Shown here piece by piece: positions 16,414-41,561 of a stretch of 41,561 nucleotides of DNA. The notes under the pieces were generated by a model, which was given only the letters and a program-made list of their open reading frames with translations, searched no databases and had not been told where the DNA came from. Position 1 is the stretch's first letter. Every line of letters starts with the position of its first letter. The position numbers and the translations under genes were made by a program. The DNA comes from Kiritimatiellota bacterium (GTDB lineage Bacteria; Verrucomicrobiota; Kiritimatiellia; CAIQIC01), in NCBI GenBank assembly GCA_026398385.1, contig JAPLSZ010000251.1, positions 7,449-49,009 on the forward strand, given 5' to 3'.

Positions 16414-16422
16414 CCGGCGGCG

Positions 16423-17800: not shown

Positions 17801-17905
17801 TCTACGTCCTGCGATGTCCTTCAACCTATTGGGAAGGGCCGCAAGTTGAACCCGCTGGCGCGCGCGGTCGCGGCCGGACGGCGAGCCGGGAGCGAGTGAA
17901 TCGCT

Positions 17906-18634: not shown

Positions 18635-19106
18635 TGGCAGCGCCCAAGGCCAGCAGGCCCACGACGGCGATGATCACGTACCAGATGGTCATGGTCTCAG
18701 GCCGCCGGGTGCCGAAGGGCGAAATACTGGCAAAGGACTCGGGCTTGGCCGAGGAGCCGGAGGTAATCTCGATGCGGGTGGTGTTGGACCGGCTGGCGGC
18801 CTCCTCCTCAGGCGGCTCGTTGGAATCGAACAGGAACTCGAGCGCGCCGGCTTGGAGAATATCCTTGGGCCGCAGGCGCATTTCGACATTGACCTCGCGG
18901 CCATTCAACCGGGTGCCGTTAGTGGAACCCAGGTCGCGGACAAAATAGTGGCGCCCCTCCCGGCGAATCAGGCAGTGCCGCCCGGATATGGATGAATTAT
19001 CCAGCGCCACTTCGCTTTCCTTCCGCCGGCCCACGAGGGTCTCATCGCGGTCCAAGTCAAAGGACTGTCCCTTGACCTCTGCAGACATGCCGATCAATGT
19101 GACCAT
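18600..19106 (-). CDS. FHA domain protein with C-terminal transmembrane anchor
   Basis: FHA core: TLVGRRKESEVALDNSSISGRHCLIRREGRHYFVRDLGSTNGTRLNG. C-terminal TM: MTIWYVIIAVVGLLALGAAIALFIYI. ATG 19106 is preceded by GGAGGA. The longer ORF to 19427 is antisense to larB. Confidence 0.8.
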   Translation of the reverse strand: MVTLIGMSAEVKGQSFDLDRDETLVGRRKESEVALDNSSISGRHCLIRREGRHYFVRDLGSTNGTRLNGREVNVEMRLRPKDILQAGALEFLFDSNEPPEEEAASRSNTTRIEITSGSSAKPESFASISPFGTRRPETMTIWYVIIAVVGLLALGAAIALFIYISRIK

Positions 19107-19212
19107 GGCGACAATCCTCCGATCACGAAAATTCAGTATGGCACGCCGTTCCGGCGGTGTCAACACTGCTGGTGACAAGACTGTCGCCTTGACCTGCCGC
19201 CGCGGGCGCGGC

Positions 19213-19998: not shown

Positions 19999-20007
19999 AC
20001 ACGGATG
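19987..20007 (+). repeat. Copy 2 of the AGCCACGGATGAACACGGATG repeat; supplies the larB stop codon
   Basis: Identical 21-mer to 13577-13597. The TGA at 19996-19998 inside the motif terminates larB. Confidence 0.85.
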
Positions 20008-20159
20008 AAGCATGGAGAAGAATGGGGAAATTGGGGCGGGAAAAGAACGGAGTTCTATCCACAGATTGCACAGAGTACGCAGATGTTCAGCCGCTTTGCG
20101 CCTTGGCGTCTTGGCGCGAGAAACTCTTCGCCTAGGTTTTAACAACAGATAAGGCACGG
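20008..20159. repeat. Composite low-complexity/repeat spacer between larB and larC
   Basis: Contains CCACAGATTGCACAGAGTACGCAGAT (CACAGAT/CACGGAT-like units) and GCTTTGCGCCTTGGCGTCTTGGCGCG. The latter resembles the reverse complement of GCGGTTAACGCAAAGGCGCGAAGGTTGGCGG at about 13500-13530. The region ends in CACGGATGAAG, which carries the larC ATG. Confidence 0.55.
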
Positions 20160-25702: not shown

Positions 25703-26368
25703 ATGACAAACGTTTTGCGGCGCATGTTGTTATTCGGTCATGCCGGGCTGCCGGTCGCCCTGCTGTTGTTTGTCCTGGGCTGCGGCGGCGGCGACGGGGG
25801 CAACCAGGCGCCGGTGCTCGATGATTTCGGCGGGAACGATCCGAACGTGGTGGTGGCGTTCGGCGACAGCATTACCGAGGGCGTGGACGGCGGCGGCGCT
25901 CCGTATCCAGGCCGCCTGGCCGCCTTGAGCGGCCGACGGGTCATCAACGCCGGCGTCGGCGGGCAGGAAAGCGGACCCGGCCTCAGCCGCCTCGGCGGCA
26001 CGCTGGCCGCCCGCAAGCCCGGTTATCTTTGCATCCTCTTCGGCGCCAACGATGTCATCAGGGGGTATGATCAAAACACTACGATTGCCAACTTGCAGGC
26101 CATGCTCCAGAAGGCGCGCGCCAATAAGACCGTGCCGATTCTGGCCACGTTGACCCCGATGATCGGCGGGCACGGCATCTGGGGCTCCACCGTAAACCGG
26201 CTGAACGACGCCATCCGCAATCTAGCCTCCGCCGAGGGCGTCACGCTGGTGGATCTTAACGCGGAATTCGGCGATGCCGAGGTGCTGTTGATCGGCGACG
26301 GGCTGCATCCCAACGATCAGGGCAACCAAGTCATCGCCCTGGCCTTCAACGACGCGCTGCCACACTAG
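25703..26368 (+). CDS. SGNH/GDSL-family hydrolase, lipoprotein
   Basis: Lipobox LLFVLGCGGG. Block I VVAFGDSITEG, block III FGANDV, block V DGLHPN. Confidence 0.85.
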   Translation: MTNVLRRMLLFGHAGLPVALLLFVLGCGGGDGGNQAPVLDDFGGNDPNVVVAFGDSITEGVDGGGAPYPGRLAALSGRRVINAGVGGQESGPGLSRLGGTLAARKPGYLCILFGANDVIRGYDQNTTIANLQAMLQKARANKTVPILATLTPMIGGHGIWGSTVNRLNDAIRNLASAEGVTLVDLNAEFGDAEVLLIGDGLHPNDQGNQVIALAFNDALPH

Positions 26369-26632: not shown

Positions 26633-29600
26633 TCATTCCAGGTCGGTGCGGGGCTTGAAGAAGCGCTCCTGGATCTTCTCCATGTAGAGGTAGATGCCGG
26701 GGGTGACGAACAGGGTGATGAGCTGGGCGAAAATCATGCCGCCGGCGACGACGAGGCCAAGGGGCTTGCGGCTGGCGGCATCGGCGCCGTAGCCGAGGGC
26801 GATGGGCATGACGCCTAGAATCGCGCACAGGCCGGTCATCAGGATCGGCCGGAACCGGACCACACAGGCATCGTGGATCGCGTCGTAGGCGTTCTTGCCC
26901 TCGCGCCGGCGCTGCTCGGCAAAGTCCACCATCAGTATGCCGTTCTTGGTGATCAGGCCGAGCAGGACGAAGACGCCGATGTAGGCGTAGAGCGACAGCT
27001 CGCTGCGGAAGGCGAACAGCGTCAGAAAGCCGCCGAAGACGGCGACAGGCAGCGTGGTCAGAATCGTGAAGGGGTGGATATAGCTTTCGTAGAGAATCCC
27101 CAGCACAATGTATTTCAGAAAAATCGCGATCAGCAGCAGCGCCCCCAGGCTGGCGATAGATTTCTTGAATTCCAACGCATCGCCGATGAAGGTGCCCGCG
27201 ACGCCCGATGGCATGAGCTGCGCGGCGCGCGCTTCGATGGCCTTGGTGATGTAGCCGAGGGGGACGCCGGGCCAGACGCTGAAGGAGATGGTCGCGGCTT
27301 CGTGCTGGTTGGCGTGCGGGACGTTCTGCGGGCTGGCTTCCTCGGTCCAGTTGACGAGGGATTTGAGCGGGACGAGGCTGCCGCTCAAGGGCGAGCGCAG
27401 ATAGAGCAGCCCGAGGTTCTCCGGCAGGCGCTGGCTGGATTTCTCGATCTCCGGGATGACCTGATACTGATCCTGGTCGGTGGTGAACTGGGTCGCATAG
27501 CCGCCGGCGAAGGCCAGCGCCAGGGCCTGTTCGATGGCCGCGACGCTGATGCCGAGCGCGGAGGCGCGGTCGCGGTCCAGGGCGACGTTCAGCCGCGGCA
27601 TGTTGAGCTTGACGCTGTTCTGGACGGCAAACGGCACGATGCCGCCGATCTGCCGCATCTCTTTTTCGAGTTGCTGCGCGGCGGCATAGACCGTGTCGCG
27701 GTCGAGGCCGGTGAGCATATAGGCGTAGTCGCTGCCCATCTGGGTAGATTCGGCGCCGGAGCTGATCTTGAGGACGGGCGCCGCGCGCAGGGCGACGATG
27801 CCTTCCGGGAAGCGGGCGAGCTTGCCCATGTATTGCTGCACGAGCTGCTCGATCGCCGGGCGCTCGTGCGGGGATTTGAGGCGGGCGAAGATGAAGCCGA
27901 TGCTTTGATCGGCGCCGGGCTGAAATCCGGTGACGCTGCCGAGCTGGGCGATGGCGGGCTCCTGCTTGAGCTGGGCGACGACCTTGGCTTGATAGGCTTG
28001 CATCTGCTCGGTGGAGGCTCCCTGCGGCATGATCATGGCGCCGAACATGAAGGAGCTGTCGCCGGGCGGCAGGAAGGAGGAGGGCAGGACGAAATAGAGG
28101 ACGCCGGTGCCCAGAATACAGGCCAGCCACATGACCACCGCGAGCCACTTGTGGCGGAGCTGCCAGTGCAGGGCCACGCTGTAGCCGCGGATCAGCCGGC
28201 CGATGTTGGCCGTGATCCAGCGCTGCACGCGGTTGGGGGCTTGTTCGTGCTTCAGGATGTGCGCGCACATCATCGGCGTGAGCGTCAGCGCGAGGATGGT
28301 CGAGACGATGATCGCATAGATGACCGTCATCGCAAACTCGTTCAGGTTCCGGCCGACCGCGCCGCTCATGAACACCAGCGGGAGGAAGACGATGATCAGC
28401 GCCGCGCTGGTGGAGATGACCGTAAAGGAGATTTCCCGCATGCTCAGCAGCGCCGCCGGGATCGGCTTCAGGCCTTCCTCCAGGTGGCGGACGGTGTTTT
28501 CCAGCACGACGATCGCGTCATCCACGAGGAAACCGACCGCCAGCACGATGCCCATCAGGGAGAGCATATCTATGTTGAACTTGCTCGGCAGCATCAGCAG
28601 CAGCGTGCCGAGGAGCGAGATCGGCAGCACGATGCTGGGGATGATTGTTTCGCGGATGCGACCGAGGAAGAAGAAGATCACCAGCACGACGAGAATCAGG
28701 GCGATGAGCACCGTCACCTCGACATCGTGCAGCGATTCGCGGATCGGGCCGGCGCCGTTGTGGAGGGCATCAATTTCAATCGAACCGGGCAGTTCGCGCT
28801 TGGCCACCGCGAGCGCTGCCGAGATTTTGTCGGCGACTTCGACGGTGTTCGCGCCGCTGGCGCGGGAGACCGCCATGACCACGCACTTGTCGGTGTCCGG
28901 CACGCCGGGCTTGGTGTAGCGGATGTTGACGAGGTCGTTGGCGATGCTGTCCACGCAGGAGGCCACGTCCTTCAGCCGGATCGGCGCGCCGGCGCGCTGG
29001 GCGATGATCAGTTCGCCGAACTCGCGGCCCGTGCGGAGCTGGCCCTGCGGTTCGATGACATAGGTGCGCACGGCGCCGTTCAGCGTGCCGCCGGGGATGT
29101 TGACCGTGCCGGCGCGCAACGCCGCGGCGAGCTCGTCTACGCCGATCTGGTAGGCCGCCAGCTTCGCCGGGCTGAACTGCACGCGCACGGCGCGCTTCGC
29201 GCCGAACACCTGCACCTGCGAGACGCCCTCGATCATGCTCAATTTGCGCGAGATGATGTGGCTGGCGTAGTCGTTGAGATCGCCATGCGTCAGCGTGGCG
29301 GAGTGCAACATGATGTAATAGATCGGCTGCTCCGATGGGTTGAACTTCTTGTAGGTTGGCGGGTTGGGCAGGTCCCTGGGCAGGTTGTTCTGCGCGCGGG
29401 TGATCGCCGCCTGGACGTCCGGCGCCACCAGGTCCACGCTGCGGCTCAGGCTGAAGGTCAGGTTGATGGTGGAGACGCCCTGCTTGTTGTCGGAGAGCAT
29501 GGACTGCAGGCCGTTGATCTGCGTGAACTCGTTTTCCAGCGGCAGCGCGACGGCGCTGGCCATGGTCGCGGGGCTGGCGCCCGGGTAGGCCACGATGACT

Positions 29601-29737
29601 TGGATGACAGGATAGTCCACCGTCGGCAGGCTGTTGACCGGCAGGCGCAGGTAGGCCCAGGCGCCGGCGACGATCATCAGGGTGGTCATCAAAATCGTCG
29701 CTATCGGGCGCCGTACAAAAACTTCAGAAAAGATCAC
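26633..29737 (-). CDS. RND efflux transporter permease (AcrB/HAE1-like)
   Basis: About 1035 aa, 12-TM. N-terminus (V)IFSEVFVRRPIATILMTTLMIVAG. Start set at GTG 29737 (GGAG upstream) rather than 29785. Confidence 0.93.
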   Translation of the reverse strand: MIFSEVFVRRPIATILMTTLMIVAGAWAYLRLPVNSLPTVDYPVIQVIVAYPGASPATMASAVALPLENEFTQINGLQSMLSDNKQGVSTINLTFSLSRSVDLVAPDVQAAITRAQNNLPRDLPNPPTYKKFNPSEQPIYYIMLHSATLTHGDLNDYASHIISRKLSMIEGVSQVQVFGAKRAVRVQFSPAKLAAYQIGVDELAAALRAGTVNIPGGTLNGAVRTYVIEPQGQLRTGREFGELIIAQRAGAPIRLKDVASCVDSIANDLVNIRYTKPGVPDTDKCVVMAVSRASGANTVEVADKISAALAVAKRELPGSIEIDALHNGAGPIRESLHDVEVTVLIALILVVLVIFFFLGRIRETIIPSIVLPISLLGTLLLMLPSKFNIDMLSLMGIVLAVGFLVDDAIVVLENTVRHLEEGLKPIPAALLSMREISFTVISTSAALIIVFLPLVFMSGAVGRNLNEFAMTVIYAIIVSTILALTLTPMMCAHILKHEQAPNRVQRWITANIGRLIRGYSVALHWQLRHKWLAVVMWLACILGTGVLYFVLPSSFLPPGDSSFMFGAMIMPQGASTEQMQAYQAKVVAQLKQEPAIAQLGSVTGFQPGADQSIGFIFARLKSPHERPAIEQLVQQYMGKLARFPEGIVALRAAPVLKISSGAESTQMGSDYAYMLTGLDRDTVYAAAQQLEKEMRQIGGIVPFAVQNSVKLNMPRLNVALDRDRASALGISVAAIEQALALAFAGGYATQFTTDQDQYQVIPEIEKSSQRLPENLGLLYLRSPLSGSLVPLKSLVNWTEEASPQNVPHANQHEAATISFSVWPGVPLGYITKAIEARAAQLMPSGVAGTFIGDALEFKKSIASLGALLLIAIFLKYIVLGILYESYIHPFTILTTLPVAVFGGFLTLFAFRSELSLYAYIGVFVLLGLITKNGILMVDFAEQRRREGKNAYDAIHDACVVRFRPILMTGLCAILGVMPIALGYGADAASRKPLGLVVAGGMIFAQLITLFVTPGIYLYMEKIQERFFKPRTDLE

Positions 29738-29771
29738 GTTTTGCTCCGTTTCTCGCCTTGGAAAAATCCGC

Positions 29772-30926
29772 TCATTCCCCCTCACGCGCGATCTTCGCCG
29801 CCGTTGGCGCCGCCGCCGGCGGCGGCTGGGTCGCGTCCATCACCGGCGCGCCGGGGAACAGCATCAACTGGCCGAGCACGACGACGTTCTCGCCGGCCTG
29901 CACGCCGGACACCGCCTGCACGAGGTCGCCCACGCGCACGCCGAGCTGTAGCGGCCGCAGTTCCGCGGTGTTCTGCGCCGAGACGACGAACAGATACGGC
30001 CCCTGCTTGCCGAATTGCACCGCGCCCTCCGGCACCATCACCGCGCCGGGCACCGTGCCGGCATGCAGGCGCACGCTGACGAACTGGTGCGCCCAGAGTT
30101 TCAGGTCCGGGTTCGGCGCGGAGCCGCGCAACTGGATGGTGCCGGTCTGCGCGCTGACGGCATTTTCGATAACGTCGAGCGTGGCGGTGTAGGTGTTCGT
30201 CTCGCCGCGCGGGACGAGTTCCAGCTTGACCGGTCCGGCGGCGAGCGCGCGGCGGATCAGCGGGAGGTAATCCTCCGAGACGGAAAAATCCACAAAGAGC
30301 GGATCATAGCTGCGGATGTTCACCAGCCGCGTCAGACCGGCGGCGACGAGGTTGCCGTCGTCGGTAGTGCGCGTCGAGCAGACGCCGGCGAGCGGCGCGG
30401 CGATCGTGCAGCGCGCCAGGTTCAGGCGCGCGAGCGCGAGCAGCGCTTCGTCGGCCTGCAGCGCGGCGCTGGCGGCGGCGAACCTGGTCTTGATCGTGCC
30501 GAAGTCCTCGGCGGAGATCAGTTTCTTTTCGAGCAGCGGCTGGTTGCGCTCCATGGTCAGGCGCGCGAGTTCGCGGTTCGCCTGGTCGGCGGCGCGCGCG
30601 GCCTCGGCCTGCTGGACGCGCGCGGCGTAGTCGCGGGGATCAATCTGGAACAGCGGCTGCGCGTTGGTGACCACGGCGCCGTCCTGGATGAACGTCTGGA
30701 GCAGTTGCCCGGAGACCTGCGGGACGATGTCCACACTCATCCGCGCCTTCGTGGTGCCGAAGGCGTTGATGAGGACCGGCGCATCCATCGGCAGCGCGGG
30801 CGTCAGCTTGACGGGGAACGCCATCTTGGGGGGCGGGCCGGCGTGCTTGCCGCAGCCCGCCATCACGGCTACTACGGCCAGCGTGGCCAGCCCGCGTGTT
30901 GTTTTCAGAAAAATGTTGGGCTTCAT
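29772..30926 (-). CDS. RND efflux periplasmic adaptor (MFP, AcrA-like), lipoprotein
   Basis: Lipobox VMAGCG. Biotinyl-lipoyl/hairpin/beta-barrel pattern (VSGQLLQTFIQDGAVV..GQPLFQIDPRDY...AEAA...C.I.AP..G). Confidence 0.9.
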   Translation of the reverse strand: MKPNIFLKTTRGLATLAVVAVMAGCGKHAGPPPKMAFPVKLTPALPMDAPVLINAFGTTKARMSVDIVPQVSGQLLQTFIQDGAVVTNAQPLFQIDPRDYAARVQQAEAARAADQANRELARLTMERNQPLLEKKLISAEDFGTIKTRFAAASAALQADEALLALARLNLARCTIAAPLAGVCSTRTTDDGNLVAAGLTRLVNIRSYDPLFVDFSVSEDYLPLIRRALAAGPVKLELVPRGETNTYTATLDVIENAVSAQTGTIQLRGSAPNPDLKLWAHQFVSVRLHAGTVPGAVMVPEGAVQFGKQGPYLFVVSAQNTAELRPLQLGVRVGDLVQAVSGVQAGENVVVLGQLMLFPGAPVMDATQPPPAAAPTAAKIAREGE

Positions 30927-30962
30927 GTTTTTCTCCGTCGCGCGATGTTCATCGTTGCATTT

Positions 30963-31036
30963 GTAGGGGCGCAGTCTTGCTGCGTCCCATGTGCTCGGCG
31001 GTCATTTAGACGGGCGCAGCAAGACTGCGCCCCTAC
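30963..31036. repeat. Perfect 22-bp inverted repeat GTAGGGGCGCAGTCTTGCTGCG ... CGCAGCAAGACTGCGCCCCTAC (30-nt spacer)
   Basis: Read directly. It lies inside the efflux operon, between the OMF stop (31072) and the MFP start (30926). Confidence 0.9.
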
Positions 31037-31071
31037 CAACTGGTTGCCAGCCGGCACGGCAAGCCAAGGTT

Positions 31072-32514
31072 TCACGGTTGCCTCTCTGCCCTGGGGGCGT
31101 CCAGGTTTTCCCGGTCGAGCGTACCGCTGGCGAAGGCCAGGTTGGCCAGGGCGGTGAAGGCCTCCTGCCGCGCCGCGATGTTCTGGCTGCGCGCGCGCGC
31201 GAGCTGCGCCTCCGCCGTGAGCAGGTTGAGGATGTTCAACAAGCCGGCCTTATAGCTGTCCAGCGCGAGGTCATAGGCCGCCTGGGCGCTGTTCAGCAGC
31301 GCGGCGCTCGCGGCGCATTTTTTCAGCGCGGTCTGGTAGTTCTGATGCCCGCTCCACACCGCGGCGCTGGCGGCGAGTTCCGCCTGTTGCAACTGGCTGC
31401 GAACCGACGCCGCCTGCGCGGCGGCGGCGCGCCGGGCGTTGCGCGTCTGCAGACCGTCGAACAGCGTCCATTGCAGACTCAGGCCCGCGCCGTAGTTCCA
31501 ATCGTTCTCGGCCACGAACTGGCCGGTCCAGACCTTGTTGTAGTCGCGCAGCGCGTGGCCGTTGAGATAGAGCGACGGCCAGTTCGGCGCGCCGGCGACC
31601 TTGATCGCCGATGTGCTCGCCTGGAGCCGGGCGCGCAGCGCGGCGATGTCCGGCCGGCGGGCGAGCGCGGCATCAATCATCGGCGTCAACTGCGCGGCGT
31701 CCACGGCCGCGGGCAGGGTTTGCGCGGGCGCAGCCACCTGGACCGCCACATCCGCCGGCAACCCCAGCGCCTGGGTCAAGGCGGCCCGCGCGTTTTGCTC
31801 AGCGCCTTCCGCGCCCGCGAGCAGGAACGCGGCTTGATCCATCAGCGCCTGCGCCTGCAACACATCCAGTTCGCGCCCGACGCCGTGGTCGCGCCGGAGC
31901 TTCGCGAACTCGAGCGCGGTCTGCGCATCCGTGAGCTGCGCCTGCGCGGCGGTGATGCCAGCCTGCGCGCTAACAAGACCAAAGTAGGCCTGCTGCACCG
32001 CCAGCAGGATACCCTGCAACGTGCTGTTGAACGTGTAGTTGGCCGCATACACGGTGTGCAGCGCCTGTTCCACGGCCGCTTCGCGTCCGCCGCCGAAGTT
32101 GAAGATCAGGTAGTTGAGCTGCAGACCCGGCCCGTAGCCCAGATAGTCCTGGTCGAGCTGGTCCACACTGGAGTTGACCTTCTGGCGGGTGACGCTGCCC
32201 TGCGCGGTGACGGTCGGCATGAAATAGCCGCGCGCCTGCTGGGCCTGCGCGGCCGCCACGCGGGCGTCGTTCCACGCCTTGCGGCTCGCCGGATTGTTCT
32301 GCAAGGCGATATCGGCCAGTTCCGCCAGCTTCAGCGGTTTGGTCAGATTGGGACAGCGCGCGCGCAGTTCCTGCCACGACTGTAAAGAGGTCCGCGCCCG
32401 TTGCGGCGGCTTCCAAGGCTGAACCGCCGATTCCGGCGCGGGCGCCGAGACGCAGCCGGCCAACGCCATGGCTGCTGTGACCAGCGCGGCCGCAAGGTAA
32501 ATCCGGTGATTCAT
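31072..32514 (-). CDS. Outer-membrane efflux factor (TolC/NodT-family lipoprotein)
   Basis: MNHRIYLAAALVTAAMALAGC lipobox. Two repeated OEP halves with a coiled-coil pattern. Start ATG 32514 overlaps the marR stop (ATGA). Confidence 0.9.
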   Translation of the reverse strand: MNHRIYLAAALVTAAMALAGCVSAPAPESAVQPWKPPQRARTSLQSWQELRARCPNLTKPLKLAELADIALQNNPASRKAWNDARVAAAQAQQARGYFMPTVTAQGSVTRQKVNSSVDQLDQDYLGYGPGLQLNYLIFNFGGGREAAVEQALHTVYAANYTFNSTLQGILLAVQQAYFGLVSAQAGITAAQAQLTDAQTALEFAKLRRDHGVGRELDVLQAQALMDQAAFLLAGAEGAEQNARAALTQALGLPADVAVQVAAPAQTLPAAVDAAQLTPMIDAALARRPDIAALRARLQASTSAIKVAGAPNWPSLYLNGHALRDYNKVWTGQFVAENDWNYGAGLSLQWTLFDGLQTRNARRAAAAQAASVRSQLQQAELAASAAVWSGHQNYQTALKKCAASAALLNSAQAAYDLALDSYKAGLLNILNLLTAEAQLARARSQNIAARQEAFTALANLAFASGTLDRENLDAPRAERQP

Positions 32515-32888
32515 GACGTGTCCCTTTTGCGCGCGCGCGACGCGCGGCGCTGTCCACGCATCTGCTCCAGGCTGCGCCGCCCTCTGGCGGTGAGCGCCAC
32601 GCGCACCTCGCGCCGGTCCGCGCGGCTGCGGCGGCGCGCCACCAGCCCGCGGCGCGCGAGTTGATCCGCCAGGCCCGTCGCCGTCGAGCCGTGCAGCCGC
32701 AGTTCCCCGGCCAGCGCGCGCATGGTGCAGGGGCCGCGATCGAAGAGGTGCTCCAGCGCCCACATCTGCGGCAAGGTGAGCGCGCCCAGCGTGGAAAGAT
32801 CGGTTTGCGAGATGCCGCGCGATAAACGCGGCAGCAGCGCGACGAGGCGCGCGGCAAACTGCTCCAGTGTGAGGGCGGCGGTGGTCAT
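32511..32888 (-). CDS. MarR-family transcriptional regulator
   Basis: 125 aa. Winged-helix pattern LTLPQMWALEHLFDRGPCTMRALAGELRLHGSTATGLADQLARRGLVAR. First gene of the efflux operon. Confidence 0.85.
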   Translation of the reverse strand: MTTAALTLEQFAARLVALLPRLSRGISQTDLSTLGALTLPQMWALEHLFDRGPCTMRALAGELRLHGSTATGLADQLARRGLVARRRSRADRREVRVALTARGRRSLEQMRGQRRASRARKRDTS

Positions 32889-32914: not shown

Positions 32915-33075
32915 GACGCGAACTATAACCCCGAATCCGCCGGGTGCAAGCGAAATAAATTCGGTTTTACGCTTGAGAAATGCCGGCGAATGCGGGATTA
33001 TGCACCATGGTTTATGGCTGCGGCAGATCAAGGACAGCGCTGCGGTGGCGGCGTGTCGGGGAAGAAGGGCAGGGT

Positions 33076-34914
33076 ATGCAGACAGGGAAACAAGAGCGCG
33101 GCGTCAGCGTTTGGCTGGCGACGCTGGTAGCACTCGGTCTGGCGGCGGGCCATCTGGCGCCGGCCCAAGCGTTGGGGAGCGGCGCGGTTCCGGCCACTGT
33201 GCACCCGGCGGACGACGAGGCCTTCGTGTTTTCGCTTACGGCCAGCAATCCGCCGGCCGCGGCTGCCGAACCGGCGGGTCTGACGAACGCGCCGCAGGCG
33301 CGTTTGAACGCGGCGCAGAACGACGTGCAGCAGGGCCGGGTGGCCCAGGCGATTCCGACACTGGAACGACTGGTGGACGAGGCGCCGCAACTGACGGACG
33401 CCTGGGAGACGCTCGGCTGGGCTTACTGGCGGCTGGGGCGGGAGGACGAAGCCCTCGCGCTATGGGGGAAATTGCTGAAGCTCAACCCGCAGATGCCGCA
33501 GGCCTACAATCTGCTGGGGGCAGCCAGCGTCAAGCGTAACGAGCTGACCATGGCCGCCATGTACTATGAAAAGAGCCTGCAGATCCAGCCGGACCAATAC
33601 GATGTGGAATTGGCCCTGGCCCGCATCGCGCGCTGGACCGGCGACGAGGAGCGTGCCATCGAAAAATTGCGGGCCTTGGCGGCGAAAGATCCCCGGCGCC
33701 GGGATGTGAAAAACGAGTTGTCCCGCGCGCTGGGGGGCGCAAGCGAAGAGCCGGCCAACCCTGTGGAACCCGGCGCGCCAGGGTCCTCCTCTGCCACCAA
33801 CGAGGAACACCGGGCGCGTCCGGCGGCGGACGCGTCATCTCCGCGCAACGCGCTCGCCGGCCAGCCGCCGGCCAGCCTCCCGGGGGACCGCGCTGCGCCT
33901 GAGCGCGCAGCCCAGCCGCCCGCCCCGCCGCTCGCGGTGGCGAGCGAGGGGCGCGGCGCGCAGAACGTCGCGCGCTACCGGCCGTATGTCGGGGCGCTAG
34001 CCGAAACCTTTCAGGATAATCTGGATAGCCGCAACTGGCGCGCATACGGACGCGCGGGCTTCCAGCCGACGCCCCGTCTGACGGTCGAAGGCCGTGCCGG
34101 TTATGGTCAGATGAAACAGGCCTTCACCAACAGCAGCGCGATCAATGTTCCCGACATCACGTTGGACGAGAAGATGGTCAGCCTCGCCCCCTCGTGCACG
34201 TCCCCGAACGGCTGGACGTTGCTGGGCGAGTTAGCGGCTCGCCAGTTCTCCGGCGCCGTTCCGGGCGCGCAGAATTTTGATAAAACCGTATTGCAATATG
34301 CCCTCGAGGGCCAGGCCAAGCCGCTGCTGCCCCTCGACGTGGCGGCGCGGTACGAGCACGACATCGTCCCCGCCGCCCGCGCGGCCCTCAAGGAGACCAC
34401 CTCCAACATGGCCTTGCTTAGCGCCGTCTGGAGCCTGACCGACTGGTGGAACCTCTGGGCCAGCGGCGAACGGTACGATTTTTCCGATGGCAATGCCCGC
34501 AACCACCTGGCGCTGAGCAGTTCCTGGCTGGTGTGGGAGCCGCTCGGCCTGCATCTGGGCCTGCGGTACGCCTATGCCGACGCCAGCGTGGCCAGTCCCG
34601 ATTACTGGACGCCTTATCAATTGCAGCGGTATTTTGTCGAGGCCGATCTGCGCGGGACGCAGCTGCGCATCTTTTATAACCTGCGCCTGCGCTATGGCCT
34701 GGGGCGGCAGGGCGTGCGGCCGGAAGCCCAGGCGGCCCTCGCCTTGCCCGGCAGCAATCCGCCCGAGGAGGGCTGGCAACCGGTGATCGGCGCCAGCGCC
34801 GCCGCGCGCGCGAAGGTCGGCAAACATTGGGAACTCAGCGGCGAAGTTTCGCACAACAAGATGCCTGACTATAACGAAACCACGGTAACGGCTGGCTTGA
34901 ACTACAGGTTCTGA
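33076..34914 (+). CDS. TPR-repeat protein fused to a C-terminal outer-membrane beta-barrel (PgaA/YaiO-type architecture)
   Basis: Signal peptide MQTGKQERGVSVWLATLVALGLAAGHLAPAQA. TPRs (DAWETLGWAYWRLGREDEALALWGKLLKLNPQMPQAYNLLG...). Pro/Ala linker. An alternating-hydrophobic C-domain of about 310 aa ends in ...TAGLNYRF (aromatic terminal residue). Confidence 0.7.
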   Translation: MQTGKQERGVSVWLATLVALGLAAGHLAPAQALGSGAVPATVHPADDEAFVFSLTASNPPAAAAEPAGLTNAPQARLNAAQNDVQQGRVAQAIPTLERLVDEAPQLTDAWETLGWAYWRLGREDEALALWGKLLKLNPQMPQAYNLLGAASVKRNELTMAAMYYEKSLQIQPDQYDVELALARIARWTGDEERAIEKLRALAAKDPRRRDVKNELSRALGGASEEPANPVEPGAPGSSSATNEEHRARPAADASSPRNALAGQPPASLPGDRAAPERAAQPPAPPLAVASEGRGAQNVARYRPYVGALAETFQDNLDSRNWRAYGRAGFQPTPRLTVEGRAGYGQMKQAFTNSSAINVPDITLDEKMVSLAPSCTSPNGWTLLGELAARQFSGAVPGAQNFDKTVLQYALEGQAKPLLPLDVAARYEHDIVPAARAALKETTSNMALLSAVWSLTDWWNLWASGERYDFSDGNARNHLALSSSWLVWEPLGLHLGLRYAYADASVASPDYWTPYQLQRYFVEADLRGTQLRIFYNLRLRYGLGRQGVRPEAQAALALPGSNPPEEGWQPVIGASAAARAKVGKHWELSGEVSHNKMPDYNETTVTAGLNYRF

Positions 34915-35014
34915 GCATGGTCGGGCTTTGAACCAATACGGACCGGTGCTATAGTGCAGCGGCGCGCCTGTGGCGGGATGGATGTTTGGGGCGGTTACGC
35001 GGACGAAAGGGGAA

Positions 35015-35245
35015 ATGCCAGTGGATACGCAATTGTTTCTCGCGAGCTTGGCCGGAATTCTCAAGGTCCTACCCGGTTCGATCAAGGGGGAAGATCAACT
35101 GGATCAATGTGCGTCTTGGGATTCGCTGGCGGTGGTCACCTTTCTGACCATGGCCAACTCGAAATTTGGCGTGCGCGTATCGCCGCCGGCGGTGATTCGA
35201 TGCAAGACGGTAGCCGATTTGATGCGGCTGGTCGCCAAGCCCTGA
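35015..35245 (+). CDS. Acyl/peptidyl carrier protein (PP-binding)
   Basis: 76 aa. ...QLDQCASWDSLAVVTFLTMANSKFGVRV with Ser codon 35123-35125 in a DSL motif. ATG 35015 is preceded by AAAGGGGAA. Confidence 0.75.
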   Translation: MPVDTQLFLASLAGILKVLPGSIKGEDQLDQCASWDSLAVVTFLTMANSKFGVRVSPPAVIRCKTVADLMRLVAKP

Positions 35246-35322
35246 TCGGCGGCCACCCGATCATAGGAGAGGCCAAGCCTGGGTTCATCCTGGAAGAGTT
35301 TGGCGCAGGCCGCCTGACATGT

Positions 35323-37188
35323 ATGGACGATTTTTTATCCACCGTTCAGAGTTGCCGGCAACTGATGACGCAGGGCGAGGTGGCCACGGCGCTCGCGGGT
35401 TTGCGGGCGGGGTTGCGTTTCGGCCAGCCGGAACCGTTCGAGTATGATCTGGCGGGACAACTGCTGGGGGAAATAGGCGCCGTGGTCCCCGCGCCCGCCG
35501 CCTTTCCGACGTACCGGGTGGGCCTCGTGGCCGACCACACCACCACCACACTGGCGAACGCGATCCGCTGCGCCTTGCTGATGGAGGGGTTGCTGCCCGT
35601 GGTCTACGAAGCGCCTTTCGGCGCGGTTTTCCAGGAAATCCTCGATCGCCACAGCGGTCTTTATCGCGAACCGCGCGACGCGGTGCTCATGGCATTTCAT
35701 CACCGTATGATCGAATATCCGGAACAGCCTTTGGGTGGCGCCGTCCCGGCCGAAGAACTGGCCGCGCGCGTGGTGGGCCGGTGGGCGGAGGCGTGGGCGG
35801 CGCTCCAGCAGAACTTGGGTTGCCAGGTGTGGCAACACACCCTGGTGCCGTCGGGTCTGGCGGGATTGGGGGCGGTGGAGCAGTCGTTGCCGGCGGCGCC
35901 GGACCAGTTCATTGGGCGGATCAATCAGCTCAGCCGCGAGCGGGCGCCGGCCTTTGTGCATTGGGTGGACACGGCCAGCCTGGCGCAACAGGTTGGGTTC
36001 AGAAACTGGCATGATCCGCGCATGTACTACTACGGCAAGTTCGGCTTCAATCCTCAGTATGTGCGGGATTACATCAACGTATTTTTGGGCGCTTTTCGCG
36101 CGGCCACCGGGCGGAACCGCAAAGTCCTGATCACAGACCTGGACAACACGCTGTGGGGCGGGGTTGTCGGCGACGCCGGCCTGGAGGAAATCAAGCTGGG
36201 TCCGGGCACGCCGGAGGGCGAAGCCCACGAAGCTTTCTGCCGCTATCTGAAAAGCCTGAAGGAACGCGGCGTTATGCTGGCGGTCTGCAGCAAGAATGAC
36301 GCGGCGACGGCGCGGGAAGTGTTCGAGCGCCATCCCCACATGCCGTTGCGGCTGGCGGATTTCTCCGCTTTTTGCTGCAACTGGAGTGACAAGGCCGGCA
36401 ATGTACTGCAGATGGCGAAGGAGTTGAACATCGGCCACACGCATCTGGCCTTCGTCGATGACAATCCCGCGGAATGCGAATTGATCCGGCGCGAATTGCC
36501 GGAGGTCGCGGTGGTGGCGTTGCCCGAGGATCCCGCCGATTTCGTGGCCGCTATTGATGAGGCGCATCTCTTCGATGCGGCGCACGTGTCGTCGGAGGAT
36601 TTGCTGCGCGCGCAATCCTACCGGGCGCGCGAGCAGGCGGAAGACGTCAAGCGTTCCGCCGGCAGCTTGGAGGCTTACCTGGCGGACCTGCGCATGGTGG
36701 GGAAATTCTTCCGGGCCAGCGCGGCGGACGTGCCCCGTCTGGCGCAGATGGAGCTCAAGACGAATCAATTCAATGTGACCACCCGTCGCTATAACGCCGA
36801 CCAGATCCGGGCCTTCCTGCAGGATGACCACATGGCGGTGTTCGCTTGTACGCTGGCCGACCGGTTTGCGAATCACGGCCTCGTTTCCACCCTGATCGCA
36901 CGCCGCGCAGGCCAGGACCTGGTGCTGGATAGCTGGCTGATGAGCTGCCGCGTTTTTTCGCGGACGCTGGAACAGTTCATGATGAATGCCTTGATCGAAT
37001 TTGCGCAGAAAAATGGCATCACGCGTATAGTCGGCGATTACCTGCCGACCTCCAAAAATGCCGTGGTGCAGGATCTTTTCTCCTCATTGGGTTTTCAACC
37101 CCTGGGCCCGAAGGCGAGCGGTCGCTGGGTGCGCAACATTCGCGACGACCCACCGCTGCCCACCAGCGTGCGCAACGACGCCACGTAA
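35323..37188 (+). CDS. FkbH-like / HAD-superfamily IIIC phosphatase-acyltransferase (carrier-protein loader)
   Basis: HAD motif I LITDLDNTLWGG (DLDNTLW = 36136-36156). KTNQFNVTTRRY. C-terminal GNAT-like block with WLMSCRVFSRTLE (Cys codon 36946-36948). N-domain VGLVADHTTTTL...VYEAPFGAVFQEILD..SGLY. The start is uncertain (35323, or 35200 overlapping the carrier gene). Confidence 0.85.
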   Translation: MDDFLSTVQSCRQLMTQGEVATALAGLRAGLRFGQPEPFEYDLAGQLLGEIGAVVPAPAAFPTYRVGLVADHTTTTLANAIRCALLMEGLLPVVYEAPFGAVFQEILDRHSGLYREPRDAVLMAFHHRMIEYPEQPLGGAVPAEELAARVVGRWAEAWAALQQNLGCQVWQHTLVPSGLAGLGAVEQSLPAAPDQFIGRINQLSRERAPAFVHWVDTASLAQQVGFRNWHDPRMYYYGKFGFNPQYVRDYINVFLGAFRAATGRNRKVLITDLDNTLWGGVVGDAGLEEIKLGPGTPEGEAHEAFCRYLKSLKERGVMLAVCSKNDAATAREVFERHPHMPLRLADFSAFCCNWSDKAGNVLQMAKELNIGHTHLAFVDDNPAECELIRRELPEVAVVALPEDPADFVAAIDEAHLFDAAHVSSEDLLRAQSYRAREQAEDVKRSAGSLEAYLADLRMVGKFFRASAADVPRLAQMELKTNQFNVTTRRYNADQIRAFLQDDHMAVFACTLADRFANHGLVSTLIARRAGQDLVLDSWLMSCRVFSRTLEQFMMNALIEFAQKNGITRIVGDYLPTSKNAVVQDLFSSLGFQPLGPKASGRWVRNIRDDPPLPTSVRNDAT

Positions 37189-37329: not shown

Positions 37330-37722
37330 TTACATCAAGTGATTGGTCGGCGTGAAAAACCAGGCGATCCGCCGTCCGCCAAACGCGGTGGCAGGCACCG
37401 GTGGGCTCACCAGCGTGCAACCTTGCTGGAGCAGGGCGGCCATCGTCGGCGTCAGATCATCCACTTCGCAGCAAAGGTGGTAGGCGCCGATACCCTTGGC
37501 CAATGTGCGGGTGATCGGCGAGTCGTCGCTCAACGCTTCGATCAATTCGATCGCAGAGTCGGTCCCTTGAGCGGGGCCCAGGAAGCAGACCCGGACTCTT
37601 TGCATGGGGTCATCGAATGGGCCAGAGCGTACGACAAAACCAAAGGCCTGCTGATAAAACTTCACGGCCTGCTCGATGTCCGCCACCGCCACGCCCAGAT
37701 GATGAATCTTAAGATCCGTCAT
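37330..37722 (-). CDS. VOC-family protein (glyoxalase I / methylmalonyl-CoA epimerase-like)
   Basis: 130 aa. MTDLKIHHLGVAVADIEQAVKFYQQAFGF ... GAYHLCCEVDDL. Start trimmed to ATG 37722. Confidence 0.8.
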   Translation of the reverse strand: MTDLKIHHLGVAVADIEQAVKFYQQAFGFVVRSGPFDDPMQRVRVCFLGPAQGTDSAIELIEALSDDSPITRTLAKGIGAYHLCCEVDDLTPTMAALLQQGCTLVSPPVPATAFGGRRIAWFFTPTNHLM

Positions 37723-37943
37723 GGTTATTGCTCTTGCCGAAGTAAAACATACGGCGGCGCACAAGTCCAGGCGCATGGCTTCATCCGCTTGGGCGAGGTG
37801 CGGATTGCCAAACCCGCGGGATTGTAGTAGAAGCTCCGTTTCTTAAAGAAAGGCCTGTGATGAACCGACCGCCGAGCGCGAGAATAAGACGCGAGCTTAT
37901 GGCCGCCGGGCCGGGCGGGTGGGCCCGCGACAGGTGCTAAGTC

Positions 37944-39377
37944 ATGCTTTTCCCAACCCTCGCTTTTGCCGTCTTTTTCCTGATCGTGTTTTGCGGCCAC
38001 TGGCTGTTGATCCGGCACGCGGTCGCGTGGAAGCTGTTCATTCTGGCCGCGAGCTGGTTTTTCTATGCTTATTGGGACTGGCGCTTTCTGGGCCTATTGA
38101 TCCTGTACACGGTGGTCAATTACAGCCTGGCGTTGGCCTCGTACCAGAGCGGCACGCCGCCCCGGCGACGGTGGGTGGCCTTGGCCATCGTGTTCAATCT
38201 CAGCCTGCTGGGGTTCTTCAAATACTACGGCTTTTTCACGGTCTCCGCCTATGCCGTCTGCGGCTGGGTGGGACTGCGCTGTCCGCTGCCCTTGCTGGAC
38301 GTCGTGCTGCCGATCGGCATTTCCTTCTTCACGTTTCAAGCCATAAGCTATGTCATTGATGTGCACCGCGGACTGATCGAGCCGGCGCACAGCGTCATTG
38401 ACTTTGCGATCTATAAGGCTTTTTTCCCGCAACTCGTGGCCGGGCCGATCATCCGGGCGAGTCACTTTATACCGCAATTCTACCAGATCATGAGCGTGCG
38501 GCGCATTGACGCGGGCCGGGCCGCCGCCTTGATCATGGGCGGCCTGTTTAAGAAGGTGGTGATCGCCAACTATATAGCCGTGAACGTGGTGGACCCGGTC
38601 TTTGGCAACCCGTGGGCGTATCAGGGCCTGGATGTCCTGCTGGCGGTGTACGGCTATGCCGTGCAGATTTACTGCGATTTCTCCGCCTATTCCGATATCG
38701 CCATCGGCGTGGCGCAACTGCTGGGATTCCATTTCCCTGAAAATTTCAACGCGCCTTATTTCGCCCGGTCCGTCCGCGAGTTCTGGCAGCGCTGGCACAT
38801 TTCCCTGTCCACCTGGCTGCGGGATTATCTTTTTTTCAGCCTGCTCGGCACCCGGCTGGGCGCCTCGCGTTACGCGCTGGGCCTCTGCGCCTTGCTTACG
38901 TTTCTGCTGGGCGGTTTGTGGCATGGCGCCGCGTGGACGTTTGTCCTATGGGGCGCGTTGCAGGGCCTGTATATGACGACGGAGTTTCTGCTGGCCAAGC
39001 TGCTGGTCTGGATGCGCGCGGGTCGTCCGCTGCCCGAGGGACCGGTGATGCGGTTGGCGCAGCGGATGGCGGTGATCCATTTGATCTGCATTTCCCATTT
39101 GTTCTTTCGGGCGCATTCCATTACGGACGGGGTGCAACTATTACAGGGGATCATGGGTTCGTGGCACGGCGCCGTCTTGCTCACTTTCCCGGCCGTCTTG
39201 GCGCTGATCATCGGCTTTCTCACGCAATACATGGATGGCACCCGCTGCGCGCCGATTTGGAATTGGTACAACCGCCTGCCGGCGGTCGGGCAGGGGCTGC
39301 TGGCGGCGGTGGTGTTGACGATCGTCCTGGCCCTGGGGCCGCAAGGCGTGGCGCCCTTCATCTATTTTCAATTCTGA
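37944..39377 (+). CDS. MBOAT-family membrane O-acyltransferase (AlgI/DltB-like)
   Basis: 477 aa, polytopic. ISFFTFQAISYVIDV; FWQRWHISLSTWLRDYLF; GGLWHGAAWTFVLWG (conserved His codon 38922-38924). Confidence 0.9.
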   Translation: MLFPTLAFAVFFLIVFCGHWLLIRHAVAWKLFILAASWFFYAYWDWRFLGLLILYTVVNYSLALASYQSGTPPRRRWVALAIVFNLSLLGFFKYYGFFTVSAYAVCGWVGLRCPLPLLDVVLPIGISFFTFQAISYVIDVHRGLIEPAHSVIDFAIYKAFFPQLVAGPIIRASHFIPQFYQIMSVRRIDAGRAAALIMGGLFKKVVIANYIAVNVVDPVFGNPWAYQGLDVLLAVYGYAVQIYCDFSAYSDIAIGVAQLLGFHFPENFNAPYFARSVREFWQRWHISLSTWLRDYLFFSLLGTRLGASRYALGLCALLTFLLGGLWHGAAWTFVLWGALQGLYMTTEFLLAKLLVWMRAGRPLPEGPVMRLAQRMAVIHLICISHLFFRAHSITDGVQLLQGIMGSWHGAVLLTFPAVLALIIGFLTQYMDGTRCAPIWNWYNRLPAVGQGLLAAVVLTIVLALGPQGVAPFIYFQF

Positions 39378-39384
39378 GACGACC

Positions 39385-39672
39385 ATGAAAGAAATGTCCG
39401 ACATTGGCGCCGAACGCAGGCAACAAGGCCACGGGCAGACCATCATCCGGACGGCAGCGGCCGTGCTTTGCTTCTATGTGTTTGCGGGCCTGCTCAACGG
39501 CGAGGCCCTCCGGCACGACGTGGAACTCATGCCCTACGGGGGCCGACGGGATGTCTGCGTGGCCCTCGTCAAGCCCATGGCCTGGTTGAGCCGGGTGACC
39601 TACCTGGGATCCTTCCGGAGCTGGATCGAAAAAAGCGTCCGCAAAGCGGATATGGCGGCGCCGAATCCCTGA
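39385..39672 (+). CDS. Small single-TM membrane protein (hypothetical; MBOAT partner candidate)
   Basis: 95 aa, starting 7 nt after the MBOAT stop. One TM, IIRTAAAVLCFYVFAGLL. No recognisable domain. Confidence 0.5.
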   Translation: MKEMSDIGAERRQQGHGQTIIRTAAAVLCFYVFAGLLNGEALRHDVELMPYGGRRDVCVALVKPMAWLSRVTYLGSFRSWIEKSVRKADMAAPNP

Positions 39673-39677: not shown

Positions 39678-41561
39678 TTAGAACTTGAACTTGATTCCGC
39701 CCAGCAGGTTCAGCGAGTTATAATCGGGCAGGCGGTTATAGGAAACTTCCCCGTTCAATTCCCAATGGCCACCTAATTTGATCCGCGTGGCCGCCACCAG
39801 CCCCAGCACGGGTTCCCAGCCCGGTTCCTCGATCGGGTTGGCCAGCAGGACATCAATATAATGCTGGAAGTTTCTAATGGTGGCCGGGCTGAATCTTCTG
39901 CTGCGGGCTGTTCGCAGGCTTTGCTGCAACTGTTGCAGATCTTCCTGATACTTGCGCTTGGCTTCAGGACGCAAGCTCTCCTTGCCGAGGCCGTAGCGCA
40001 CGCCGATATTGTAATAGATCCGCCGGTAGGTGCGCCGGAAAAAGGCTTCCAGGTAGTAGCGGTTCAGTTTATAGGGCGTCCAGTAGTCCGGACTGGCTTC
40101 GTCGGCGGAGGTATATTCATAGCGCAGCCCCAGGCGGAAACCGGCGGGCTCATACAGCAGCCACAAGCTTTCCGCCATCAAATGATTGCGGTTGTTGGAA
40201 TCGGAAAACATGTAACGCGTGCCGCTGGCGTTGAGGTCCCACCAATCGAACAGACGGTAGGCCGCGGCGAGCGTGCCGGCGTTGTAGGTGGTATCTTTAA
40301 GCGCCGCGCGCGCGGAAGGCACGATGTCGTGCTCCCAACGCGCGGCCACGTCCAGCGGCAACAGCGGCTTGATCTGTGCTTCCGCCGCATACTGGATTAC
40401 CGTTTTGTCGAAGTTGGCTGTGTGGCCGTTCAAGTCCGTCGGCACCTTGCCCGTGAAGTGGCGATCAGAAAGCTCGCCCAGCAACACCCAGCCGTTGGGG
40501 AATTTGACCGCCGGCGCCACGCCCACCGTGCGCTCATCCAGTCGAATCTCCGGTCCGTTGAGCGCCAGATTGTTGGTGAACGCCTGCTGCATCCGGCCGA
40601 TGCCCGCCGTGCCCTCCACGGTGATGTTGGGGGTCAGGTTCAAACCCCCGAGGCCCAGGAGGCGCCAGTTGCGACTGTCGAGGTTGTCCTTGAGATACTC
40701 CGCCCGGACGCCGACATACGGGTCTTTCAATTCCAGATGGAAGGGTCCCTTGGTGACTTTACTGATACCCACCGGTGTCGTGCGCACCCCCGTCAGGCGT
40801 TCGTACACGTAACTCGCCACTTTGTTGTAGGCATTCGTCGGATAGCCGTCCTGCCGCAATTGCGCCAAGGCGTCCTTGGATTTATAGATCTTGCCTTCCT
40901 GGGCGGCGTATTCGGCCCGCAGCCGGTGGGCCAGAAAGACCGGGTGATTGCGCAGGAGGTATTCCACGGCTTCCGCTCCCGGCAGGCGCCCCAGCTCGTG
41001 GCGCTGGTAGAGCAGGGGGTTGTCGCCGTTGACCGCGTAACCAAACTGGCTTTGGATAAAGCCGGTTTTATAGTTGGCGGCCGCTTCCCGGAGATTGACC
41101 GTGAGGGCCTCGGGCATGTCGCTGCGCGTTTCCTGGCCGAGGTCGCCCATGGGGTAGGCGATGATATCCGCTGCGCCGCCCAGCTTCTGCTGCATAATTT
41201 CGCGGCTGCGCTGGTATTCATATTTGATGCGGGCATCATATTCGTTTTCGGTTTCCAGCCGGTTCGGCGCAGCGAGCCATAGGCGGTTGGCCAGCGGATG
41301 GATGACCGAATTGTCGGACTCCATGTGCAGCACCTCATGGGCTTCCATCAAATGGCTGCCAAACCGCCAGCGGCCCGTGGCTTGAGCGGCCTTCATCTGC
41401 TCCCAGGAACTGGTGTAGGAATCGTGATCCACATGGCCCACGGGCACATGCATGAGGAATGTCGTGTTGAAATCCTGCGCCACCGCGGTCCCCAGCCGCA
41501 GGGCCTCCCGCCGCGCATCGTCGAAGGTGACCATGACCACACGCTCGGGTGTACCCGTCGG
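39678..41561 (-). CDS. NodB/PgaB-like polysaccharide deacetylase fused to a C-terminal outer-membrane beta-barrel; 5' end beyond the window
   Basis: The frame is open to the window edge (...PTGTPERVVMVTFDD). TFDD (41517-41528) and H-x4-H (GSHLMEAH) are as in PgaB, plus AYPMG. The C-terminal domain of about 345 aa is paralogous to 33980-34914 and ends ...GGIKFKF. Confidence 0.75.
   Translation of the reverse strand, partial: PTGTPERVVMVTFDDARREALRLGTAVAQDFNTTFLMHVPVGHVDHDSYTSSWEQMKAAQATGRWRFGSHLMEAHEVLHMESDNSVIHPLANRLWLAAPNRLETENEYDARIKYEYQRSREIMQQKLGGAADIIAYPMGDLGQETRSDMPEALTVNLREAAANYKTGFIQSQFGYAVNGDNPLLYQRHELGRLPGAEAVEYLLRNHPVFLAHRLRAEYAAQEGKIYKSKDALAQLRQDGYPTNAYNKVASYVYERLTGVRTTPVGISKVTKGPFHLELKDPYVGVRAEYLKDNLDSRNWRLLGLGGLNLTPNITVEGTAGIGRMQQAFTNNLALNGPEIRLDERTVGVAPAVKFPNGWVLLGELSDRHFTGKVPTDLNGHTANFDKTVIQYAAEAQIKPLLPLDVAARWEHDIVPSARAALKDTTYNAGTLAAAYRLFDWWDLNASGTRYMFSDSNNRNHLMAESLWLLYEPAGFRLGLRYEYTSADEASPDYWTPYKLNRYYLEAFFRRTYRRIYYNIGVRYGLGKESLRPEAKRKYQEDLQQLQQSLRTARSRRFSPATIRNFQHYIDVLLANPIEEPGWEPVLGLVAATRIKLGGHWELNGEVSYNRLPDYNSLNLLGGIKFKF

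Follow-up and report, generated by a model that had tools for sequence, protein, structure and literature searches.

A conserved single-pass membrane protein encoded directly behind a long MBOAT acyltransferase in a Kiritimatiellota exopolysaccharide locus

The small gene and the MBOAT that precedes it

We consider here a 41,561-nt stretch of DNA from a Kiritimatiellota bacterium (contig JAPLSZ010000251.1, positions 7,449 to 49,009 of the forward strand; hereafter the window, with positions counted from its first letter) and, within it, two adjacent genes on the plus strand: one for a membrane-bound O-acyltransferase (MBOAT) of 477 aa (37944–39377; PF03062, E = 1.4e-21), and one for a small membrane protein of 95 aa (39385–39672). 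The stop codon of the MBOAT occupies 39375–39377, the ATG of the small open reading frame (ORF) follows at 39385 after a gap of 7 nt, and a further gap of 5 nt separates the small gene from the stop codon (39678–39680) of a convergent gene encoding a deacetylase/beta-barrel protein. This arrangement had been described in an earlier reading of the sequence (the original prediction), and its coordinates for the MBOAT, the conserved histidine, both gaps and the single transmembrane (TM) span of the 95-aa ORF are all correct. As we show below, the small gene is real and conserved, is always coupled to an MBOAT of one particular type that ends in FIYFQF, and is homologous to the N-terminus of fused proteins bearing a DUF459 domain.

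The MBOAT shows all of the features expected of the long PatA/AlgI type: the PF03062 domain, the catalytic histidine (His327, in a WHG motif; codon 38922–38924, plus strand), and a terminal FXYXXF motif carried on extra helices. The motif takes the form FIYFQF, constitutes the C-terminal hexapeptide (residues 472–477; 39357–39374, plus strand), and fits the acyl-shuttle motif of DltX and PatA; the longer ending GVAPFIYFQF is common to all related MBOATs. A match to the DltB model TIGR04091 (E = 3.7e-48) falls under the model cut-off, and DltB structures cover only residues 124–388, leaving an 89-residue C-terminal extension that, by analogy with PatA, would be the part bearing two extra helices and the shuttle. 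The FXYXXF hexapeptide at the C-terminus of DltX defines that protein, and its tyrosine carries the acyl group; in all non-Dlt bacterial MBOAT–SGNH systems the motif is fused to the MBOAT's C-terminus, and PatA auto-acetylates its tyrosine (PMC12148441). With the shuttle motif already present on the MBOAT, and with no conserved nucleophile in the outer part of the small protein (see below), the relay role is filled and the small protein is unlikely to be catalytic.

Spurious ORFs are abundant in high-GC DNA, and dozens are listed in the region of the small gene. That this particular ORF is a real gene follows from its homologues, its low ratio of nonsynonymous to synonymous substitution rates (dN/dS), and a frame-specific GC content at third codon positions (GC3). 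Its product corresponds to MCX6997541.1 (locus tag NTV49_10755) with 100% identity and has 11 close homologues, all of 89–91 aa and sharing 57–70% identity; dN/dS is 0.21–0.31 against three orthologues and 0.16–0.31 across all compared pairs, and it is only in the annotated frame that GC3 reaches 0.80. When 1.84 billion representative proteins were searched with a profile, this set grew to a family of 114 clusters (defined at 50% identity) at E ≤ 1e-3, with 34 at E ≤ 1e-10, and lengths fall between 67 and 125 aa in all but four of the 114. A search for homologues of the 95-aa protein, which the original prediction had proposed, thus did uncover a family, found beside MBOATs wherever the upstream DNA can be read, and the contrary case that it had named, an ORF that is not conserved, is contradicted by the cluster count and the dN/dS values.

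Hydropathy windows place a single hydrophobic span at residues ~19–38 (39439–39498, plus strand), which is predicted to form a TM helix ending at Asn38 and is followed by a tail of ~57 residues. An AlphaFold2 (AF2) model built on an alignment of 83 family members (pLDDT 91) contains helices at residues 7–13, 20–37 (the TM helix), 39–47, 53–72, and 74–91. Asn38 is invariant (83 of 83 members) and Phe30 nearly so (82 of 83), and Gly52, Arg55, Pro64, and Arg78 are likewise conserved. The outer part of the protein holds no conserved tyrosine, serine or cysteine nucleophile across these 83 members: Tyr51 is present in 63 and replaced by phenylalanine in 17, Ser69 gives way to alanine or glycine in 15, and Cys58 is variable, as are the C-termini, which are not aromatic. 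The N-terminus reads MKEMSDIG..R (residues 1–12; 39385–39420), where M1, K2, M4–G8, and R11 never vary in close relatives, and a (D/E)I(G/E)xxR motif is a recurrent feature of the family as a whole.

The family is unannotated and is defined here by a length of ~90 aa, a TM helix ending in Asn38, the conserved residues listed above, and its position after a FIYFQF MBOAT. The small ORF has no match in Pfam or NCBIfam at E ≤ 0.01; the 83 members, compared with Pfam at E ≤ 1, return scattered single matches only, none of them consistent; the family profile finds nothing among PDB sequences at E ≤ 10; and a Foldseek comparison of the AF2 model with the PDB gives nothing under E = 1.7, as expected for a protein of few helices. 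We note in passing one metagenomic protein of 113 aa (P0024; P-numbers denote family proteins or clusters from the profile search) in which the C-terminus of an MBOAT (…GVAPFIY) runs into the small-protein module. A frameshift or a gene-calling error at the edge of a contig is the probable cause, though the protein could be a natural fusion of MBOAT and microprotein.

The original prediction had raised the possibility that the small protein is a DltX-like acyl relay, in which a tyrosine would accept the acyl group from the MBOAT and hand it to an SGNH enzyme. The setting does recall Dlt, in that a single-pass microprotein stands beside an MBOAT and an acyl carrier protein (ACP, described below), and Tyr51 is indeed common in the family. 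Against this, the complete shuttle motif lies on the MBOAT's C-terminus, a placement that suffices in PatA (PMC12148441), and the 95-aa protein yields no match to the regular expression F.Y..F. The replacement of Tyr51 and Ser69 in many members leaves the family with no conserved nucleophile, and no DltX match was found in Pfam or NCBIfam. With ~90 aa and three extra helices, the small protein is moreover twice the size of DltX; the MBOAT, with its C-terminal extension, is not of the short DltB type, and the putative carrier loader at this locus is FkbH-like rather than a DltA ligase. The location of the motif together with the missing nucleophile largely refutes a relay role, which we consider very improbable.

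Kinship with PatB-family proteins and gene order at related loci

Three of the 114 clusters, all of them distant ones, consist of longer proteins (P0103, 362 aa; P0124, 361 aa; P0123, 447 aa) in which an N-terminal module like the small protein is tied, through a linker rich in Pro/Thr, to DUF459 (PF04311, E from 4e-51 to 3e-64). Alignment of the family profile with P0124 and P0103 by hhalign gives probabilities of 98.2–98.3% and E values of 2–3e-14 over 69–80 columns. From the fused layout and these alignments, we conclude that a subset of PatB-family proteins bears an N-terminal membrane module to which the small protein is homologous, DUF459 being the PatB family (PMC9487903). The PF04311 SGNH domain itself is absent from the small ORF.

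The DUF459 protein of one related locus (L001; L-numbers denote related loci) matches PatB crystal structures with E of ~1e-14. In the published model of PatAB, the N-terminus of PatB consists of a TM helix and amphipathic surface helices, contacts helices 1 and 17 of PatA, the latter bearing the shuttle, and is joined to the SGNH domain by a disordered loop (PMC12148441). The AF2 architecture of the small protein and the linker of the fused forms agree with this layout. The small gene thus presents a PatB-type arrangement, with a TM helix and surface helices encoded 7 nt after a PatA-type MBOAT.

Gene order elsewhere ties the same components together. A locus search with an alignment of the family yielded five loci from metagenome contigs and only the L001 contig from genome contigs. 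In every locus with readable upstream DNA, the small gene lies directly 3′ of an MBOAT of 472–490 aa (L001/2, L004, L005/6, L008, L011–L015, L017, L019, L020 twice, L021, P0073, and P0126). A DUF459 (PF04311) SGNH gene is the next gene in ~8 loci (L011, L012, L014, L015, L020 twice, L021, and P0073) and is displaced 1.3–5.4 kb downstream in L001 and L004; the DUF459 proteins of these split systems bear their own signal-peptide-like N-termini. In three distant loci the small gene shares 14–20 nt with the DUF459 gene (L012, 8317–8330; L014, 8191–8204; L015, 1694–1713), which is consistent with translational coupling of the two halves of a once-single protein. The gene caller missed the small gene in L015. 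L020 contains two tandem cassettes of MBOAT, small protein, and DUF459 (4685–7131 and 8421–10867), with a VOC-fold gene between them and one ACP–FkbH pair ahead; these may represent two acylation activities served by one donor system.

The same comparison bears on the second idea in the original prediction, that the ORF is the leftover N-terminus of a truncated AlgJ-like gene. Taken as a functionless 5′ remnant of a PatB- or AlgJ-like gene whose catalytic part was deleted, the ORF would account both for its homology to the module with which the fused DUF459 proteins begin and for the local gene order, in which no DUF459 gene follows and the convergent gene lies just 5 nt away. A length kept within 67–125 aa across nearly all 114 clusters is not what such a remnant would show, nor is a dN/dS of 0.16–0.31 between lineages with and without an adjacent DUF459 gene; furthermore, the small gene is separate even where its neighbour is an intact DUF459 gene that encodes a signal peptide itself. 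The remnant idea fails because of this conserved length, the purifying selection, and the separateness of the gene next to a complete DUF459, and we regard it as scarcely credible. Nor does the alternative of a simply degraded copy hold, given that the adjacent DUF459 in the ~8 loci is a separate gene and the small gene there is still free-standing. What survives of the earlier idea is that the ORF does match the N-terminal module of an SGNH partner. The latter belongs with PatB/DUF459 rather than with AlgJ, Pfam searches having found no AlgJ/AlgX signature in the ORF or its 83 relatives, the long relatives carrying DUF459 and not ALGX, and the module is not degraded.

On this evidence, we consider it probable, though well short of certain, that the 95-aa protein serves in the inner membrane as a non-catalytic, single-pass subunit of a polysaccharide O-acylation machine of the PatA/PatB type, corresponding to a free-standing DUF459 N-terminal module. 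Several observations weigh against this reading. Full-length PatA and PatB of Neisseria gonorrhoeae and Proteus mirabilis were taken from chromosomes mislabelled as plasmids, and hhalign of the family profile with the two PatB proteins gives non-significant probabilities of 1% and 0.2%, respectively; short matches fall at equivalent positions and are likewise not significant. The link to characterised PatB N-termini is thus architectural and contextual, rather than a demonstrated sequence homology, and the proposed docking role draws on the fused DUF459 proteins and on architectural analogy. In addition, purely periplasmic docking would leave the conserved cytoplasmic N-terminus unexplained; its conservation suggests an extra contact on the inner face, possibly on the donor-binding side of the MBOAT. 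Finally, no DUF459 gene is present in the available flanks of the window, L005, L013, L019, and P0126, and for these five loci or groups the small protein may act without a DUF459 enzyme.

Donor, transferase and the surrounding genes

Upstream of the MBOAT, on the same strand, lie genes for an ACP of 74 aa with a DSL phosphopantetheine-attachment site (35021–35245; PP-binding, E = 8.5e-8) and for an FkbH-like protein of ~621 aa (HAD-IIIC; 35323–37188; TIGR01686, E = 1.2e-86). The start of the latter, ~35323, was placed by comparing the orthologues from L001 and L004 with the window by tblastn; the mechanical ORF at 34954–37188 (744 aa) overextends it, and the ACP sits inside that stretch in another frame. 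An ACP and FkbH-like gene linked to a FIYFQF MBOAT are found in the window (35021–37188) and in L001 (6167–8396), L004 (2321–4475), L020 (2243–4353), and L021 (2405–3335), and in L017 (2–1069) the FkbH-like gene only; the ACP of the window is 66–77% identical to those of L001 and L004. The small gene occurs also in loci with no ACP or FkbH gene in view (L011, L013, and L014).

FkbH enzymes of polyketide extender-unit pathways form glyceryl-ACP from 1,3-bisphosphoglycerate, and the FkbH-like protein is likely the loader of the ACP. Nothing else at the locus is as unusual as this linkage, which suggests a carrier-dependent, possibly glycerate-derived acylation of exopolysaccharide. Non-Dlt MBOAT–SGNH pathways have been described as lacking a carrier protein as well as a membrane microprotein and as using acyl-CoA (PMC12148441); the MBOAT clade with ACP and FkbH appears to be an exception to the carrier-free rule. 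Our search of the literature on FkbH combined with MBOAT, or on carrier-dependent exopolysaccharide MBOAT systems, found nothing relevant.

These genes also bear on a different role for the small protein, namely that of an MBOAT accessory with a cytoplasmic or assembly function (stabilising or gating the MBOAT, for instance by docking the donor or the ACP through the conserved N-terminal helix, or coupling the MBOAT to the complex for polysaccharide synthesis and export) that is independent of any SGNH enzyme. Such a role would explain why close relatives differ least in the cytoplasmic N-terminus, whose motif is kept family-wide, and why the five loci or groups named above retain the MBOAT and the small gene while the available flank shows no DUF459 gene; the linkage of ACP and FkbH in the window, L001, L004, L020, and L021, and of FkbH in L017, would fit a contact with the donor. 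ACP docking sits poorly with the presence of the small gene in L011, L013, and L014, where neither donor gene is in view. More generally, the fusion to DUF459 in three clusters and the translational coupling in ~8 loci point to a joint function with the DUF459 enzyme, and we hold an SGNH-independent role to be unlikely, if still a serious candidate.

The subunit reading raises the question of where the catalytic partner is encoded. A tblastn search of the window with seven DUF459 proteins gave no match, and a DUF459 hidden Markov model (HMM) built from 27 domains and run against the six-frame translation of the window reached E = 0.22 at best, where the same model found both copies in L020, used as a positive control, at 3e-67 each. 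Among the window's long ORFs, Pfam scans revealed no gene of the PatB/DUF459 type, and no AlgX/AlgJ (PF16822) or AlgF-type protein was found there. The original prediction that the window lacks a transferase of the AlgJ, AlgX, DltD, or PatB type is thereby borne out. Since the window holds no DUF459 gene, the catalytic partner must be encoded elsewhere or have been lost. Homologues of the L001 DUF459 protein were also sought, and none of the 13 matches comes from the contig of the window or from the NTV49 genome, which suggests, short of proof, that the gene is absent from this metagenome-assembled genome (MAG), itself possibly incomplete. In five loci (L001, L004, L011, L015, and L016) a DUF459 gene lies directly upstream of the gene for a TPR–deacetylase–barrel protein, and by synteny with these the missing gene could be a minus-strand gene 2–3 kb to the right of the window. 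An encoding elsewhere, as had been surmised, is the likeliest state of affairs; relocation, loss, and incompleteness of the MAG all fit the data at hand.

A specific candidate had also been named, the SGNH lipoprotein encoded at 25703–26368. The window has no other SGNH-fold gene; this one has a lipoprotein-like N-terminus and accounts for the best DUF459-HMM match reported above. That match is at the level of E = 0.22, and BLASTP against the L001 DUF459 protein aligns a 22-residue segment only (E = 0.02), the lipoprotein being of the Lipase_GDSL_2/TesA type and not DUF459. The gene lies 11.6 kb off, past a complete RND efflux operon on the minus strand (26633–32763; outer-membrane factor, membrane-fusion protein, and AcrB-like pump) that separates it from the exopolysaccharide module, and no related locus has an SGNH gene of this kind near its MBOAT. 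That this lipoprotein is the cognate transferase of the MBOAT is therefore quite improbable.

The genes that frame the pair are those of an exopolysaccharide module. Its upstream edge is the gene for a protein with TPR and outer-membrane beta-barrel parts, resembling the exporter PgaA (32980–34914, plus strand; TPR families and OMP_b-brl, with PgaA at E = 2.2e-10), which is 47% identical to the TPR protein that precedes the MBOAT in L005. Between the FkbH-like gene and the MBOAT lies, on the minus strand, a VOC/glyoxalase-fold gene resembling methylmalonyl-CoA epimerase (37330–37776; PF13669, E = 1.6e-22; TIGR03081, E = 3.7e-18), and VOC-fold genes recur in the related clusters of L019 and L020. 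The convergent gene downstream (39678–41561, minus strand; PF01522) encodes the C-terminal part of a CE4 deacetylase with an outer-membrane beta-barrel, a fusion of the PgaB/PgaA kind. Its frame is open up to the window end at 41561, such that the listed start at 41540 is not real, and it aligns only with the C-terminal half of TPR–deacetylase–barrel proteins of 1,240–1,254 aa (residues ~600–1254 in L001). The barrel parts of this gene and of the one at 32980–34914 are paralogous. In L001, three proteins of 1,226–1,254 aa are encoded in tandem at 12474–20276, the first a TPR–deacetylase–barrel fusion and the other two TPR-rich.

The remaining genes of the window are unrelated to this module (sugar catabolism, a peptidase, radical-SAM, LarB/LarC-like, and GT4 genes). 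Among them, adjoining AIR-carboxylase-like (LarB-type) and nickel-insertion (LarC-type) genes at 18988–21536 (plus strand) suggest nickel-pincer cofactor biosynthesis, a matter separate from the MBOAT finding.

A candidate split acylation machine

If the small protein is indeed a subunit of a PatA/PatB-type machine, the reaction might proceed as follows. The FkbH-like enzyme would load a glycerate-derived acyl unit onto the ACP, acyl-CoA being an alternative donor, and His327 of the MBOAT would pass the acyl group across the membrane to Tyr474 of its own FIYFQF motif, as the motif and the biochemistry of PatA and DltB lead one to expect. On the analogy of PatB, the TM helix of the small protein would pack against the MBOAT, with its three outer helices resting on the membrane surface, where they may either hold the last, shuttle-bearing MBOAT helix or dock the soluble DUF459 transferase. 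The serine of the DUF459 enzyme would then take up the acyl group and place it on the exported, partly deacetylated glycan.

Comparison with characterised systems brings out both the kinship and the novelty of such an arrangement. As in PatA/PatB of Neisseria, Campylobacter, and Proteus, the MBOAT is long and ends in FXYXXF (FIYANF in N. gonorrhoeae, FIYASF in P. mirabilis, FIYFQF here), a DUF459/PatB-family SGNH gene stands directly downstream (in related loci, not in the window), and the membrane module consists of a TM helix and surface helices ahead of the catalytic domain. In contrast to PatA/PatB, however, the membrane module here is a separate gene of ~90 aa, without detectable sequence similarity to the N-termini of Neisseria and Proteus PatB, and the DUF459 enzyme of the related loci is secreted by means of its own signal peptide, with no DUF459 gene in the window at all. 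The setting also differs, being an exopolysaccharide locus of synthase, TPR, deacetylase, and barrel genes rather than patA–patB–ape1, as does the donor side, with an ACP and an FkbH-like loader where PatA uses acetyl-CoA.

The DltB–DltX–DltC–DltD system likewise distributes MBOAT, single-pass microprotein, carrier, and SGNH transferase over separate genes and shares the same acyl-tyrosine motif consensus. There, however, the motif sits on DltX and accompanies a short DltB, whereas here it sits on the MBOAT and is missing from the microprotein; in Dlt an adenylating ligase, DltA, charges the carrier, for which an FkbH-like protein is the likely loader here, and the SGNH partner in the related loci is DUF459, not DltD. 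With the alginate (AlgI–AlgJ–AlgF–AlgX) and cellulose (WssFGHI) systems, the locus shares an MBOAT module placed within a synthase-dependent exopolysaccharide locus with a TPR/barrel exporter, but the small protein matches none of those families, and the partner in related loci is of the DUF459/PatB kind.

More broadly, and only tentatively, these loci may encode a widespread three-part machine not described before, made up of an MBOAT with a built-in tyrosine shuttle, an obligatory microprotein serving as the PatB anchor, and a soluble DUF459 enzyme. In Kiritimatiellae, the donor would be an FkbH-loaded ACP instead of acetyl-CoA, and the product a glycerate-derived ester on a polymer resembling poly-N-acetylglucosamine (PNAG), with the microprotein recruiting the transferase or, where DUF459 is missing, allowing another acceptor. 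Set against the published model of MBOAT–SGNH pathways (PMC12148441), the loci described here have both a carrier and a microprotein, arranged otherwise than in Dlt. The apparent missing transferase of the window would then reflect a split system with its catalytic half lost or encoded outside the stretch, and would call for no new transfer chemistry. Should the small protein prove to be a docking subunit, it would represent a new family of ~114 clusters, without a Pfam model and overlooked by annotation, and it would mean that in PatB-like enzymes the anchor can be separated from the catalytic domain.

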